DNA from: an uncultured Anaerolineae bacterium
GTDB taxonomy: Bacteria; Chloroflexota; Anaerolineae; JAFGEY01
Assembly (NCBI GenBank): GCA_964449465.1
Contig: CAYVBK010000015.1
Span: 64,001 to 107,854, forward strand
DNA: 43,854 bases
Direction: 5' to 3'
Numbering within the stretch: position 1 is the first letter of the stretch; every line of letters begins with the position of its first letter. The notes under the pieces are model-generated. The model did no database searches. It was not told where the DNA came from and worked only from the letters and a program-made list of their open reading frames with translations. The translations under genes and the position numbers were made by a program. Below, piece by piece: positions 1,990 through 37,290 of the stretch.

Positions 1990-3348
1990 CTAGGCCGCCT
2001 GCGCCCTGGCCCGCTGAAGCTGCCACAGCACAAACCGCACCCGCTGCGCCACCGCCGCCGAAATGTTCCACATCAACCGTGTGCCGAGTATGGCATCGTC
2101 TTCGCACAGAGCCAGCAGCCGCTCGCGAGAAAGGCTCAAGACGGTGGCACCCTCGGGGCCGGCGGCCAGGTCGGCGCTGCGCAGCCCCTGATCCAGCATC
2201 GCCAGCTCGCCGGCAATCTGTCCAGGCCGCAGCACGGCGGTTTTGTAGGGCTGCTGCGGACCGTCGGGTCCGTCGGGGTCTTTCCACACCTCCACCAACC
2301 CCTCTTGAATGATGTACAACTCGCTGCCGGCCTGAGCCTCTTGCACAATTGGCTCGCCGGGCAGATAATTTCGCGCCCGGCACTGGGCGGCCAGGCGGAT
2401 GCGCTGCGGCTGATTGAGATTGTTGCCAATGTCCGAGTGGGCCAAAAATTGGGCCACATCTTGCACGCGGAACAGTTCTTGATCGTCCACCGGCGCATGC
2501 AATTGATCGCCGGTCAGCGGCAGGCCCAAATAGGCGGCCACTAACCGCCGCACGGCGTCGGTGTTCTCAAACTGCGGCCAGTGCCCGGCCTGAGGCAAGA
2601 TGCGCAGGTCGGCGTCGGGCCACTCATCGGCGATCACGCCGGCATCGCGCAGCGGTACCGTATTGTCCTCTGCGCCCCAAATCACCAGCGCCGGCGTAGA
2701 CACCTGGCTCAATTGGCCGCTCAGGTTGTTTTCGCGCATAGCCACAAAGCACTCGGCCCGCGTGCGCCCCTGCCCCGGCCGACGGGCATCGGCGCGCAGC
2801 CGCTCATAATCCTGCCGGGTGATACCGCTGCGTTCGGCGAACGAAGCTGGCCGCATCAGCCGGTCGGTGATACCCACAAAAGTGCGCTCGACGCTGGACA
2901 CAATCAGGCTGCCCAGGCCAAACCGCTCCAGCATCGTGACCGGCGAAATGCCCAGGTTGATCATCAGCGAAAGGTTGCCGGTGATGGTCGGGCCAATCAA
3001 GACCATGCGCTCCACCAACACCGGATGGCGCAAGGCCATCGTGACACTGGTCATGCCCCCCATCGAATGTCCCACCAGCACGGCTGGCCCGTCGCCGATC
3101 TGGGCGATCAACTCGGCCAGCAGGTCGGCCAAAGCCGGAATGGTAGCTCGCTCGCTCAGCGGCGGCGACTCGCCATAGCCGGGCAGATCCACGGCGACGG
3201 CATAAAATCGCTGGCCGAGCAGCTTGAGCAGCGGCGACATGGCATACCACGAACTGGACCAGCCGTGAATCAGCAGAGCCAGTTGACGGTTGGGATTCCC
3301 TTCTTCGACCGTGTGCAGTTTTTGACCCAAAACGGTGTAAACAGACAT
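1990..3348 (-). CDS. Alpha/beta-hydrolase fold enzyme fused to a C-terminal CAP-type cyclic-nucleotide-binding domain
   Basis: N-terminal region is LLIHGW...GHSMGG (nucleophile elbow GxSxG). C-terminal region has the phosphate-binding cassette GELAML...RSADLAA typical of cNMP-binding domains. Start moved to the internal ATG at 3348 (MSVYTVLGQKLH...), which is preceded by AAGGGGG 7 nt upstream. Confidence 0.8.
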   Translation of the reverse strand: MSVYTVLGQKLHTVEEGNPNRQLALLIHGWSSSWYAMSPLLKLLGQRFYAVAVDLPGYGESPPLSERATIPALADLLAELIAQIGDGPAVLVGHSMGGMTSVTMALRHPVLVERMVLIGPTITGNLSLMINLGISPVTMLERFGLGSLIVSSVERTFVGITDRLMRPASFAERSGITRQDYERLRADARRPGQGRTRAECFVAMRENNLSGQLSQVSTPALVIWGAEDNTVPLRDAGVIADEWPDADLRILPQAGHWPQFENTDAVRRLVAAYLGLPLTGDQLHAPVDDQELFRVQDVAQFLAHSDIGNNLNQPQRIRLAAQCRARNYLPGEPIVQEAQAGSELYIIQEGLVEVWKDPDGPDGPQQPYKTAVLRPGQIAGELAMLDQGLRSADLAAGPEGATVLSLSRERLLALCEDDAILGTRLMWNISAAVAQRVRFVLWQLQRARAQAA

Positions 3349-3412
3349 ACTCGCCCCCTTGTCTTGCAATTGAACCTTTTGCGATTGTAACATAGACATA
3401 CACAAATCAGGA

Positions 3413-33906: not shown

Positions 33907-35517
33907 TCAGAACCCAGGCTGAACGGCTTGCCCCTGCCCCTCGACCAGCCAGCGATAGGTTTTCTCGATGCGATCCCAATGGTGTTCCCGGTCGAGGGCC
34001 CAAAAGCGGCCAATGACGCCGGCGCATTGCCCCACACCCAACCGGTCACACTCGGCCTCGATCTCGTTGACATACAGCGCGCCGCTTTCCGGCTTTTCGC
34101 CGCGCCGCCCCAACAGGCCATGCACATAGACCTCTGACAAGCCCTCTTGTTTAGCCATACGCAGCAGGGCCTTGAGGTGTTCGACCGAGCCGTGCGAGCT
34201 GTAGAATGAGATGATGCCCAACAGATGCAGGCGCACACCATCGCGCCGGGCTCCTTGCATGGCCCAGAGAAAGGCCGGATTTTGGAAAAAGCTGCCGTCG
34301 GCGATGGCCCGTTCGATACGCAGCCGGTCGGACGGCACCACCCGTCCTGCGCCCAAATGCATGTGTCCCACCTCTGAATTGCCCACCGTCTTGCCTGGCC
34401 GCCCCGGCACGGTGTTGGGCAGGCCCACGGCCTCGCCGGCGGCCTCGATGCGGGTAGCAGGAAAATCGCGCTGGATGGCGTCCATCGTGGGCGTGTCGGC
34501 CTCCCAGATCAGGTTGCCCCAGGTGTCGTCGCGCGCCCCCCAGCCATCGAGGATCAGCAGGGCCACGCGGATGGGCGGCAGGTCGGCCGGCGGGTGGACG
34601 ATCAGCGGCGCGCCGGTCATGGCCGCCGGGCGGGGGATGCCTAACAGGTGCAGCGCGGTGGGGGCCACGTCGGTCAGACCGCCGTCGTTACGCAGCGATG
34701 CGTGGCGCAGCGGATGGCCGGGCGGCGATACCAGCACAAACGGCACCGGGCTGTCGGTGTGACCGGTGTCAATGGTGCCGTCTTCATAATACCACTTTTC
34801 CACCGTGCCATGGTCGGCTGTGACCAGGACCATGACGCCTTGTTCCTGAGCCGTTTGCAGTACACGGCCAAGCTGACGATCTACGGCCGAGACGGCCTGC
34901 TTGATCCGCTCCTTGTCTTCGCTGTGACCGATCACGTCGGTGTTGGCCCAGTTGACCACGATCAGGTGCCAGGTAGGGTCGCGCAAGGCCTCTATGGCTG
35001 CATCGGCGACCTCTTGGGCGCACATTTCGGGCAGCGGCCAATAACCCTCGAACGGGCGCGAGGGGATGATGCGCCAGGTTTCGCCAGGAAACGGATCGTT
35101 GCGTTTGCCGTTGAGGAAATAGGTTACATGCACCCCTTTTTCCGACTCGACGATCTTGATCTGGCGGCGACCGGCGCGGCTGACCGTCTCGCTCAAAGTG
35201 TCGTGGAGAATGCCCAGCGGCGGAAAGGCCACATGCTCCACCAGGCCGGGCCGGTATTCGATCATAGTAGCCCAGTGCGTTTGGATGGGTGAGCGGGGGA
35301 AATGGGGAAATTCGCTGCCGACAAAGGCCTCGGTCAGCTCGATCTCGCGTTCGCCGCGAATGTCGTCAAAAATCACATAATCGCCGTTTTGGATGCGACC
35401 AACCGGCTGCCCATCGGGGCCAGCCAGGAGCAGCGGTTCCATCGTTTCGTCATCCTGGCCGGCGCGGTAGGCCTCGCGGATGGCCTGAGCGATGGGAAAG
35501 AACAAAGAATTGGACAT
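33907..35517 (-). CDS. Cofactor-independent phosphoglycerate mutase (iPGM/GpmI family), circularly permuted domain order
   Basis: Residues 1-~295 align to the C-terminal half of GpmI (IFxxxRxDRxRE, AFPP, ETEKxxHVTFFxNG, NxxNxDMVGH, TADHGN, EMTG...L). Residues ~305-536 align to the N-terminal half (LLILDGWG, MGNSEVGH, AMDRDxRWDR). Start ATG 35517 with AGGAG 6 nt upstream. Confidence 0.85.
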   Translation of the reverse strand: MSNSLFFPIAQAIREAYRAGQDDETMEPLLLAGPDGQPVGRIQNGDYVIFDDIRGEREIELTEAFVGSEFPHFPRSPIQTHWATMIEYRPGLVEHVAFPPLGILHDTLSETVSRAGRRQIKIVESEKGVHVTYFLNGKRNDPFPGETWRIIPSRPFEGYWPLPEMCAQEVADAAIEALRDPTWHLIVVNWANTDVIGHSEDKERIKQAVSAVDRQLGRVLQTAQEQGVMVLVTADHGTVEKWYYEDGTIDTGHTDSPVPFVLVSPPGHPLRHASLRNDGGLTDVAPTALHLLGIPRPAAMTGAPLIVHPPADLPPIRVALLILDGWGARDDTWGNLIWEADTPTMDAIQRDFPATRIEAAGEAVGLPNTVPGRPGKTVGNSEVGHMHLGAGRVVPSDRLRIERAIADGSFFQNPAFLWAMQGARRDGVRLHLLGIISFYSSHGSVEHLKALLRMAKQEGLSEVYVHGLLGRRGEKPESGALYVNEIEAECDRLGVGQCAGVIGRFWALDREHHWDRIEKTYRWLVEGQGQAVQPGF

Positions 35518-35523
35518 GATACA

Positions 35524-35700
35524 CTCCTGAGTCCACTGAAAAAACCACCAAGAACACCAAGTACACGAAGAAAGTCAAGACTTGCATTAATTATTTCAAT
35601 ATTGTATTTGAACAATTTCAAGCTCAACCTGAATTTTCTTTGTGACCTTTGTGTTCTTTGTGGTTAAATCCACCTTTTTTCAGGAGAGTCACTCCTGAGT
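35524..35700 (+). repeat. MITE-like palindromic dispersed repeat, copy D (diverged, longer AT-rich centre)
   Basis: actcctgagtccactgaaaaaaccaccaagaacaccaag...ctttgtgacctttgtgttctttgtgg...ttttttcaggagagtcactcctgagt. The iPGM RBS lies within its left terminal repeat. Confidence 0.7.
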
Positions 35701-35772
35701 TTGAAAAAGATGCGACACATTGTATCACATCCATCTCTGGGCGGCAATTGCGAGGTGGTTGAAACAAAAAAA

Positions 35773-35803
35773 GCCCTGGCGGTCATTCTCCAGGGCTGGT
35801 GTT
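35773..35803 (-). terminator. Rho-independent terminator on minus strand (GCCCUGG-loop-CCAGGGC followed by U7)
   Basis: Plus-strand sequence is aaaaaaaGCCCTGG-cggtcattct-CCAGGGC. On the minus strand it is followed by UUUUUUU. It lies 20 nt downstream of the small ORF stop. Confidence 0.7.
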
Positions 35804-35815
35804 TTCAGGCACGAA

Positions 35816-35962
35816 TCATCCCAAAATGATAATCAGGGTTTGCAGCCAGGCTGCCAGACGGCTCTTGTTGGCCGATAAAAAACGACGCGCACTGGCTGCC
35901 TCGCTCAGCAGATCGTCCATCTTGAGCCTGGCCACCTGATTGACCATCCAATAATTATCCAT
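35816..35962 (-). CDS. Small ORF (48 aa) absent from the >=60 aa track: MDNYWMVNQVARLKMDDLLSEAASARRFLSANKSRLAAWLQTLIIILG
   Basis: Strong SD GAAAGGAGG lies 5 nt before the ATG. A strong terminator follows directly. Own promoter 300 nt upstream. Confidence 0.4.
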   Translation of the reverse strand: MDNYWMVNQVARLKMDDLLSEAASARRFLSANKSRLAAWLQTLIIILG

Positions 35963-36262
35963 TTTTGCCTCCTTTCGGGCCTAGCCCGATTGTGAGGTAC
36001 CCTGCAACCGATCACGTTGCATAAAAAAAAGGGCACCTTGACCAATGATGTAGGTTCTGGGTGTCCTTTTCCTACGCCTACGAGGTTAGCTAGGCGATGC
36101 GTATCGCCCGGGCTTGGGTCGAAAAAGGCTGACCCTACACTGTTTCGCGCGCAGACCCGGCAACGACTCTGCCTGGAAACCCGTGATTCGCCCCTGATGT
36201 GGTTCCCCCGTTACAAGCCTGACCTGACAAGCCAGCCTGTATTAGGCGATTTATTCAATTGC
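35963..36262 (-). promoter_or_regulatory. ~300-nt structured 5' leader with internal terminator-like hairpin + U8 (candidate riboswitch/attenuator or ncRNA)
   Basis: On the minus strand, AAGGACACC-(21 nt)-GGUGCCCUU is followed by UUUUUUUU, ~70 nt upstream of the small ORF's RBS. Upstream of that lie several mutually exclusive hairpins (GGGUC-10-GACCC, GGCGAU-ACGC-AUCGCC, CGCCUA-10-UAGGCG). I cannot match it to any known riboswitch class by eye. Confidence 0.3.
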
Positions 36263-36268
36263 AGGGTG

Positions 36269-36298
36269 ATCATATCACAAGAAATATCCTCTGTCAAG
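36269..36298 (-). promoter_or_regulatory. Near-consensus sigma70 promoter on minus strand: TTGACA-18-TATGAT
   Basis: Plus-strand tgtcaa at 36293-36298 gives the -35. Plus-strand atcata at 36269-36274 gives the -10. Located immediately after the stop of the ABC permease gene. Confidence 0.5.
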
Positions 36299-36300
36299 CC

Positions 36301-37290
36301 TCAGCCGCGTTTGCGTTGAATGATGGCAATGCTGATCAGGATGAGCAGGCCGCTGATGACCGTGTACAGCAAAATGTAGACGATCCAGGGCGAGATCAAG
36401 GGGACGACATAGGTGTTGCCGTTGTTGCTGGTAACCTGACTGGTGAAAAAGAAAAACGAGTTTTTCTCTTGCTCAATCACCACAGTGGCGATGGCAGTGG
36501 CAAAGGGGTTGGAGCATACCAGCAGGCCGCCCAGGTAGACCAGGGCGATCTGGCCGATCCAGTCCAGCTTGTCCATAATCGGGTCAATCAGGACGCCGAT
36601 AAAGCCGAGCAGCATGGACAGCATAATCGGCAGCCCCATCGAAAAGAGCAGGATGGTGGCATAGGTCAGCACGGTCGAGGCGATGGATGATTTCATCAGG
36701 CTAGAGATGAAAATGCCCACCGCGCCCGAAAGCAGGGCGGTGGCCAGCAGCAGCAGCGTGCCGATGATCACTTCGGGCAGGACGACGCCGCCAAAGACAA
36801 AGGCCAGGCTTTCGATGGGCAGGGCCACCAGGATGAGCAGGACGATATAGGCCAGCGCCGATACCAGTTTGCCCAGCACCAGCGAATGGGTGGGCAGCAG
36901 GGTGGTGACCAACAGTTCCAGCGTTTTGCGCTCGCGTTCTCCCGAAATTGCTCCAGCCGTAAAAGCCGGCGACAAAAAGACCACCATCACCATCTGCAAG
37001 AGATAGGTGCTGTAAAAGAGAGCCTGCCCTATCGTCGAGCCGACCGTGCCGCTGTTGGATGAGGCTTCGGCAATAATAAAGTAAACGAACGATGCAAAGC
37101 AGCTCAAAATGACCAACTGACTGATCAGCACGGCGGCGGCGCGCCAGCCGCGCATGCGCCCGCGCAGTTCCTTGATCACTACCGGGTTGTTCCAGGTCTG
37201 GTAGGCCAGGCGATGAAACAGTCCCAGCAGTCGCTGTGACAGGGGGCGCCGAATTTTTTGGGGAGCAGGTGATAGGGCGGTTTCGCTCAT
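36301..37290 (-). CDS. ABC-2 family transporter permease
   Basis: Six hydrophobic segments. GGAGAAGAG RBS. Follows the ABC ATPase with a 29-bp gap. Confidence 0.7.
   Translation of the reverse strand: MSETALSPAPQKIRRPLSQRLLGLFHRLAYQTWNNPVVIKELRGRMRGWRAAAVLISQLVILSCFASFVYFIIAEASSNSGTVGSTIGQALFYSTYLLQMVMVVFLSPAFTAGAISGERERKTLELLVTTLLPTHSLVLGKLVSALAYIVLLILVALPIESLAFVFGGVVLPEVIIGTLLLLATALLSGAVGIFISSLMKSSIASTVLTYATILLFSMGLPIMLSMLLGFIGVLIDPIMDKLDWIGQIALVYLGGLLVCSNPFATAIATVVIEQEKNSFFFFTSQVTSNNGNTYVVPLISPWIVYILLYTVISGLLILISIAIIQRKRG

Follow-up and report, generated by a model that had tools for sequence, protein, structure and literature searches.

Described c-di-AMP riboswitches and a leader very probably of the same class

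Cyclic di-adenosine monophosphate (c-di-AMP) controls potassium and osmolyte balance as well as cell-wall homeostasis. The known targets of c-di-AMP riboswitches are transporters of K+, osmolytes and amino acids, and cell-wall enzymes (PMC7266159, PMC9960051), and the riboswitch is described as an OFF device (PMC11963983). Here we analyze a stretch of 43,854 nucleotides from contig CAYVBK010000015.1 of an uncultured Anaerolineae bacterium (assembly GCA_964449465.1), called the window below, on whose minus strand a leader that very probably belongs to this class precedes a gene for a 48-residue protein. The layout of the leader suggests the opposite output. We put at roughly one half the probability that the locus is a natural ON-type c-di-AMP riboswitch module, in which high c-di-AMP switches on production of a helical protein, 48 residues long and with a hydrophobic tail, and in which four mutually exclusive helices couple transcriptional read-through to translation.

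Characterized natural elements are described as switching expression OFF. Those of Bacillus subtilis ydaO/kimA and B. thuringiensis kdp do so by termination (PMC6488665), the C. glutamicum nlpC riboswitch reportedly acts most likely at translation (PMC9960051), and a Thermoanaerobacter element sequesters the Shine-Dalgarno (SD) sequence in a pseudoknot (PMC11963983). Biosensing required an engineered ON version: in this construct, ON-riboCdA, a hairpin competes with the pseudoknot, and the ligand-driven pseudoknot displaces it, turning expression ON (PMC11963983). A full-text literature search for ON-type c-di-AMP riboswitches returned only the engineered one; as the class-founding papers lay outside the search, the absence of a natural one is unproven.

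An earlier note on this DNA, made from the sequence alone, had read the succession of promoter, long leader, terminator and gene as the layout of a riboswitch or attenuator of no class it could name, and had proposed an Rfam scan of the leader. The reading was right, and the scan supplied the class. At the gathering score (38 bits for RF00379) the whole window gave no Rfam match. In E-value mode, positions 35450-36400 gave a match to RF00379, the c-di-AMP (ydaO/yuaA) family, at 36258-36061 of the minus strand, covering the full model (1-134) at 37.2 bits and E=6.9e-7; for the whole window the E-value is 3.2e-5, and no other match falls below 1e-3. The leaders of five related lineages match the same family at 63.7-74.4 bits, and the window core is 86-90% identical to these high-scoring relatives over 99 positions. 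Judged from its sequence, the leader can be assigned with high confidence to the ydaO-class (RF00379) riboswitches, paired with the 48-codon gene and predicted to bind c-di-AMP.

A single regular expression parses the leaders of all six lineages (the window with L001-L004; L005/L006; L007; L021/L027; L022-L025; L028) segment by segment. The pseudoknot was defined from the crystallized Thermoanaerobacter construct, whose sequence is quoted in PMC5393176 and in which, from complementarity within that sequence, we infer pairing of the P6 loop CUCCUU with the 3' tail AAGGAG. The window and the crystal construct have in common P1 (CGCC/GGCG), the UAA junction, ACGGGGG-AACC, GGGG-CGAAUC, UA-GGGUC[loop]GACCC, AAG-CCC and AGCUAA-CCUCGU-A. 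The conserved nucleotides of the pocket junctions (UAA after P1, ACGGGGGAACC, GGGGCGAAUC, UA-GGG, NAG-CCC and AGCUAACCUCG) are identical or nearly identical to both the Rfam consensus and the crystallized sequence, the sole exception among the junctions being the one after P4. The window thus carries the features of the class as known from B. subtilis ydaO/kimA, B. thuringiensis kdpFABC and the Thermoanaerobacter constructs: helices P1-P6, junctions CGAAUC, UA, AGCUAA and ACGGGGGAACC, the pseudoknot between P6 loop and 3' tail, a position in the 5' leader and an intrinsic terminator after the aptamer.

Helices P1-P6, arranged as two pseudo-symmetric halves, were parsed in every lineage, and a minimum free energy (MFE) fold of the aptamer by itself gives P1, P2, P3, P5 and P6. 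Within a sample of only six lineages, two helices show compensatory changes: P3 has an A-U pair in three lineages and a G-C pair in two, and the U-A pair of the window's P6 is replaced by C-G elsewhere. The duplex of the window P6 loop CCUUUUUC with the tail GGAAAAGG comprises 8 bp at -8.3 kcal/mol; across the six lineages this pseudoknot has 7-9 bp at -8.0 to -9.7 kcal/mol, and in each of them the P6 loop is the tail's best partner anywhere in the aptamer. The loop variants CCUUUUUC, CUUUUUCC and CUUUUCC all retain pairing with GGAAAAGG.

The window departs from the rest of the class in its expanded P2, its expanded P5, a new hairpin after P4 and a score 0.8 bit below the cut-off. The three inserted hairpins probably account for the shortfall, because the covariance model misaligns the junction insert and forces it into P6. 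The same features would fit a decayed aptamer that has lost c-di-AMP binding through the three insertions, one of them in a conserved junction, leaving the leader as a constitutive partial terminator or a sensor of something else; in favor of this count the 37.2 bits against a gathering score of 38 and the J4/3 junction of 18 nt, compared with 3 nt in relatives and the crystal construct. However, the conserved core nucleotides are all in place, as are P1-P6 and the pseudoknot; identity of the core to the relatives stays high, and promoter, terminators and open reading frame (ORF) are undamaged. Each insertion is a hairpin complete in itself; two sit at helix tips, the third in the junction. 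The last occurs only in the window lineage, where L001-L004 are identical in it, and the four near-identical metagenome copies retain all three insertions; the single change in P2, A to G in L001, L002 and L004, turns a U-A pair into U.G and so preserves pairing. We therefore consider decay improbable.

Peripheral expansion also affects L005, where the RF00379 model picks the wrong 5' strand of P1 because P2 is expanded to 35 nt. Further enlargements occur in this lineage (L005 131-250 and 421-540): its stretch of about 60 nt between promoter and P1 has an extra hairpin of about 40 nt at its 5' end, the leader terminator is followed by a spacer of 60 nt, and 64 nt are inserted ahead of the SD site. 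The tail, GGUGCCC, GGGUACCUCA and GGAGG, which it shares with the other lineages, are unchanged.

The expression platform

The central feature of the locus is that the tail GGAAAAGG takes part in two helices, the pseudoknot with the P6 loop and the base of the 5' arm of the leader terminator (Table 1). Because the tail is common to both, the predicted ligand-locked pseudoknot and the terminator are mutually exclusive. Within the terminator, the last two Gs of the tail form the two G-C pairs beside the U tract, its A run pairs with a U run, and ACACC pairs with GGUG across a conserved A.C mismatch. The upper stem covaries (CCGA/UCGG in L022, CCAAU/AUUGG in L028, CCAA/UUGG in L007), and a U tract of 6-8 follows in all six lineages. 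When the tail was blocked to mimic the ligand-locked state, the remaining stem had only -3.1 to -7.4 kcal/mol and ended 3 nt (CCC) before the U tract; stems that end short of the U tract in this way terminate poorly. In the six-lineage parse, nothing else that lies between the tail and the 3' arm is complementary to that arm. The usual OFF design is therefore unavailable here, there being no separate terminator 5' arm for the ligand to free. From this layout the platform would be an ON switch, in which c-di-AMP raises read-through; we regard this as probable.

Invariant or nearly so in the six leaders are P1, the junctions, the tail UA-GGAAAAGG-ACAC, the arm GUGCCC with its U6-8, GGGUACC-UCA and GGAGG, while P2, P5 and the upper terminator stem vary with pairing kept. 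Lengths vary in the spacer after the U tract (11-60 nt) and in the insert between CCUC and GGAGG (8-64 nt).

We propose that the tail GGAAAAGG pairs alternatively with the P6 loop CCUUUUUC, forming the pseudoknot that defines the class and that c-di-AMP stabilizes, or with GGUGCCCUUUUUU, which completes the terminator. Without ligand, the terminator would nucleate at CACC:GGUG, displace the pseudoknot and stop transcription at the run of eight U. With c-di-AMP bound, the tail would be locked, only the weak remaining stem could form, and RNA polymerase would read through, so that the small protein is made.

Such logic is familiar from other riboswitches. In the transcriptional ON riboswitches for fluoride (crcB) and ZTP (pfl), a ligand-stabilized pseudoknot shares its 3' strand with the 5' arm of the terminator; the ligand blocks strand displacement, giving read-through. 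The window can be likened to them in that its tail lies in both the pseudoknot and the U-tract terminator, and ligand-dependent read-through is predicted here by analogy; its aptamer fold and ligand are unrelated to theirs, and it is not a member of those families. ON-riboCdA likewise couples a c-di-AMP aptamer to a hairpin competing with the pseudoknot by strand displacement. It is, however, synthetic and translational, with an added stem-loop hiding the SD site until the pseudoknot forms (PMC11963983), whereas the competing hairpin of the window is a natural intrinsic terminator conserved in six lineages.

Natural RF00379 members differ from the window as they are described, since here the terminator is built on the pseudoknot tail, and ON rather than OFF is the predicted output. 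The contrast turns solely on the position of the terminator relative to the tail, and it can be seen in two comparators, L031 (113.9 bits) and L032 (101 bits), RF00379 members on Bacillus/Priestia plasmids upstream of amino-acid/APC permeases. Like the window they belong to this Rfam family and carry a terminator after the aptamer; unlike it, the base of their terminator stem contains no pseudoknot-tail nucleotides. In L032 the terminator begins about 30 nt after the tail, and in L031 it abuts the tail yet still forms with the tail blocked (-11.6 kcal/mol).

The locus might nevertheless be a canonical OFF riboswitch, in which the ligand promotes termination or SD sequestration via a pairing that we did not recognize and the protein is made at low c-di-AMP. 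The characterized natural members are described as OFF (PMC9960051, PMC6488665, PMC11963983), which counts against the ON assignment; this output is typical of them, not family-defining, and the opposite is predicted for the window from sequence logic only. Folding also showed no antiterminator in the two presumably OFF comparators, which makes its absence from the window weak evidence, and G-rich strands of the aptamer offer the C-rich 3' arm of the terminator other partners at -11 to -13 kcal/mol. However, these aptamer partners do not lie at a conserved site, while the pseudoknot tail is the only upstream complement to the arm, so the ligand-stabilized helix and the terminator compete directly. 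The helices further downstream, GGUGCCC:GGGUACC and CCUC:GGAGG, have ON parity as well. On balance we rate an OFF switch as unlikely but deserving serious attention.

These downstream helices may add a translational layer to the proposed ON switch. In sequence, the GGGUACC element complements the terminator 3' arm. It is identical in five lineages, and the GGGCGCC of L021/L027 differs at two positions, each of which stays paired (U.G to C-G, A-U to G.U). The GGUGCCC:GGGUACC duplex has 8-11 bp at -14.9 to -17.6 kcal/mol. The last two Cs of GGGUACC begin CCUC, which in every lineage closes a hairpin onto the SD site, the intervening insert carrying different nested hairpins from one lineage to another. 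In the read-through RNA the freed GGUGCCC would pair with GGGUACC, overlap CCUC and thereby open the SD site, a second layer in the same direction; the chain of pseudoknot, terminator, GGUGCCC:GGGUACC and CCUC:GGAGG could thus have the parity for a ligand favoring an open SD site. Dinucleotide-shuffled sequences reached the observed complementarity in only 0-10 of 1000 cases in four lineages, which clearly beat them, and with the tail blocked the SD site was unpaired with a mean probability of 0.37 instead of 0.13 in the window and of 0.60 instead of 0.20 in L005. The relay remains a tentative suggestion that we favor less than the transcriptional switch, and an initial idea of a strong translational switch was downgraded, SD accessibility changing little in three of the five lineages.

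Several observations weigh against the ON module as a whole. The window aptamer scores 0.8 bit under the Rfam cut-off, and its inserted hairpin makes an 18-nt junction where relatives and the crystal construct have 3 nt. Even without ligand, a pseudoknot of 8 bp might form. The antiterminators of the two Bacillus-type comparators did not emerge from equilibrium folding, and in-silico logic for this class is accordingly of limited power. For the translational layer, shuffled sequences matched the GGUGCCC:GGGUACC complementarity in 56 of 1000 cases for the window and 107 of 1000 for L005, which is not significant there, and the gain in SD accessibility was at most 0.08 in the other three of the five lineages.

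The transcription unit and its 48-residue product

All the elements described in the earlier note (promoter, structured leader, leader terminator, ORF and second terminator) are present on the minus strand. The promoter hexamers are those it gave, TTGACA and TATGAT, but their spacer is 17 nt and not 18. TTGACA-17-TAnnAT stands at the equivalent place in L005, L007, L022 and L028, and transcription is inferred to start at about 36262. A simple terminator scan listed neither terminator, both loops being above its 8-nt limit. A hairpin with a U-rich run follows the ORF in L005, L007, L022, L027 and L028 too, the U tract being poor in L027. The unit thus seems rather likely to be a monocistronic operon, with a strong promoter, a riboswitch gating transcription, the gene for the 48-residue protein and terminators of its own. 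The lineage of L021/L027 lacks the clean TTGACA-17 arrangement of the other five; upstream of its riboswitch (L021 1950-2110, L027 90-145) lies a direct repeat of about 60 nt (CCAAACGCTTACG.TCCGT.AACA.CCCG.TA.CAAACAC.TGG) carrying a promoter-like sequence.

Table 1. Coordinates of the predicted elements of the unit in the window.
Feature	Position	Strand	Remarks
Sigma-70-type promoter, TTGACA-17-TATGAT with upstream TG	-35 36297-36292; -10 36274-36269	minus	11/12 consensus positions
Putative c-di-AMP aptamer	36065..36248	minus	RF00379 match and parse common to relatives
P1	36248-36245 with 36078-36075	minus	
Expanded P2 hairpin, 30 nt, 13-bp stem	36212..36241	minus	folds
P3	36211-36205 with 36085-36080	minus	
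P4	36194-36191 with 36112-36110	minus	5' strand GGGG, three pairing
Expanded P5 hairpin, 47 nt	36138..36184	minus	14-33 nt in relatives
P6 hairpin	36135-36116	minus	
P6 loop AGCCUUUUUC, 5' strand of pseudoknot	36121..36130	minus	
Extra hairpin GGCGAU-ACGC-AUCGCC	36092..36109	minus	junction between P4 3' strand and AGCUAA; fold and parse
3' pseudoknot tail	36072-36065	minus	first eight nucleotides of terminator 5' arm
Leader intrinsic terminator AAAAGGACACC...GGUGCCC, then U8	36072-36023	minus	RNAfold
Terminator 5' arm GGAAAAGG-A-CACC	36072-36060	minus	
Terminator 3' arm GGUGCCC	36037-36031	minus	
Terminator U8	36030-36023	minus	
Conserved GGGUACC-UCA element	35993..36002	minus	GGGUACC complementary to terminator 3' arm GGUGCCC
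Anti-SD CCUC	35997-35994	minus	complementary to SD site
Variable structured insert between CCUC and GGAGG	35992-35973	minus	
SD site GGAGG	35972-35968	minus	5 nt before ATG
48-codon ORF	35962-35816	minus	
48-residue protein MDNYWMVNQVARLKMDDLLSEAASARRFLSANKSRLAAWLQTLIIILG	35816..35962	minus	
ORF intrinsic terminator GCCCUGG...CCAGGGC, then U7	35796-35773; U7 35772-35766	minus	RNAfold recovers hairpin

The ORF is called as a gene in assemblies, and its product matches neither a Pfam nor an NCBIfam family. When 1.84 billion representatives were searched exhaustively with HMMER, the 48-residue product had only three small relatives; a word-indexed profile search of a set of 5.8 billion sequences gave seven cluster representatives, all but one of 48-49 residues; the exception is a 68-residue, N-terminally extended gene call from the window's own lineage. 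All relatives are metagenomic and are named 'hypothetical protein' at most. Invariant or nearly invariant are an N-terminal MD..W, a basic RRFL..KK patch and a hydrophobic C-terminal L.QSLIIILG. From the alignment of seven sequences AlphaFold2 predicts one helix, spanning residues 3-47, at a predicted local distance difference test (pLDDT) score of 70.

The SD site, the ATG and the length of the ORF are conserved across the six lineages. In a codon-aligned comparison of these, synonymous divergence (pS) is 0.43-0.83 and nonsynonymous divergence (pN) 0.18-0.48; between the window and L005 third positions dominate, with 15 changes at first, 7 at second and 26 at third codon positions. By these comparisons the ORF is a real protein-coding gene under purifying selection. 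As an observation apart, L021 (2367-2513) has an in-frame TAA at codon 35, where the near-identical L027 (387-533) has AAA (Lys); the former could be a pseudogene, a sequencing error or a population variant.

These data also bear on an alternative raised in the earlier note, that the leader RNA stands alone as a small non-coding RNA and the ORF is incidental. The functional product would then be the terminated RNA of about 240 nt, acting as a small RNA or sponge that binds c-di-AMP; the aptamer does lie between a strong promoter and a terminator, and a short RNA should accumulate when read-through is off. This view accounts poorly for an ORF whose start codon, SD site and length are maintained in six lineages, whose pS lies well above pN, and which has a conserved terminator of its own but, according to a promoter scan of the window, no promoter between itself and the leader terminator. 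The ORF family is also found only behind an RF00379 aptamer. We consider an RNA product with an incidental ORF highly improbable.

In contrast to the usual outputs of the class, then, the proposed riboswitch would regulate a 48-residue protein of unassigned family, which is not among the targets described for c-di-AMP riboswitches (PMC7266159, PMC9960051). Because of its proposed induction at high c-di-AMP, its predicted single helix and its hydrophobic C terminus, we speculate that it is a small membrane-associated modulator in c-di-AMP physiology, whose role could be to modulate ion or osmolyte transport or c-di-AMP turnover.

Genomic setting and significance

The earlier note had looked to related genomes for conservation of the leader, and the whole unit indeed recurs in five other lineages, with an RF00379 aptamer directly upstream of the ORF in all six lineages for which enough upstream DNA was available. 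Two further loci were recovered from JGI metagenomes by a DNA pattern for the expression platform; L020, one of three metagenome hits to the pattern, lies inside a coding region and was rejected. A search of genome and metagenome contigs with the protein alignment returned no relatives, its MDNYW pattern being too strict, and 12 hits of an 18-mer DNA scan of genome contigs were dismissed as chance, none of them accompanied by a c-di-AMP RNA.

In the window the unit lies between an ABC-2 transporter gene upstream and a gene for 2,3-bisphosphoglycerate-independent phosphoglycerate mutase (iPGM) downstream. In the L022/L024 lineage iPGM is upstream and a convergent GFO_IDH_MocA oxidoreductase gene downstream, and a convergent gene of the latter kind likewise follows the ORF in L005 and L007. 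Because neighboring genes differ while the aptamer, the ORF and the unit's own terminators recur together, the unit is a self-contained module. No genes for diadenylate cyclase, phosphodiesterase or K+ transport were seen among the window ORFs scanned.

The neighboring iPGM (33907-35517, minus strand) appears from its domain order to be circularly permuted: its residues 10-306 align with positions 214-504 of TIGR01307, and the start of the iPGM_N profile is matched further on, by residues of about 401-531. The same permuted order is found in the unit-adjacent iPGM of L024 and in the P0006 contig. The iPGM gene has a promoter-like site (TTGCCG-17-TACAAT, 35747-35719, minus strand) and an AT-rich leader (35510-35747, minus strand) with an imperfect hairpin of about 125 nt, CCACAAAGAACACAAAGGUCACAAAGAA ... 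UUCUUCGUGUACUUGGUGUUCUUGGUGG, followed by six U (MFE -66.4 kcal/mol, z=-5.4 against shuffles). This hairpin could be an insert resembling a miniature inverted-repeat transposable element, a terminator or a regulatory structure. Elsewhere in the window, a minus-strand ORF (1990-3405) combines an alpha/beta-hydrolase domain with a C-terminal cyclic-nucleotide-binding domain.

The locus places a known riboswitch class in an arrangement with two new features, a platform that predicts activation by c-di-AMP and an exclusive pairing with an uncharacterized family of small proteins. As the case of the window illustrates, aptamers with inserted hairpins can fall just below Rfam cut-offs, and those with peripheral insertions are likely to be under-counted by threshold-based annotation. 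If the ON assignment is true, the locus would be the first ON-type member among the natural c-di-AMP riboswitches that we have found described, the class would work in both directions, and the natural platform would supply a ready-made design for ON sensors. The locus would also point to a gene that cells want more of at high c-di-AMP. The small protein would be a new output of c-di-AMP signaling; being found only behind this riboswitch, it makes a specific candidate for a new effector of the signal.

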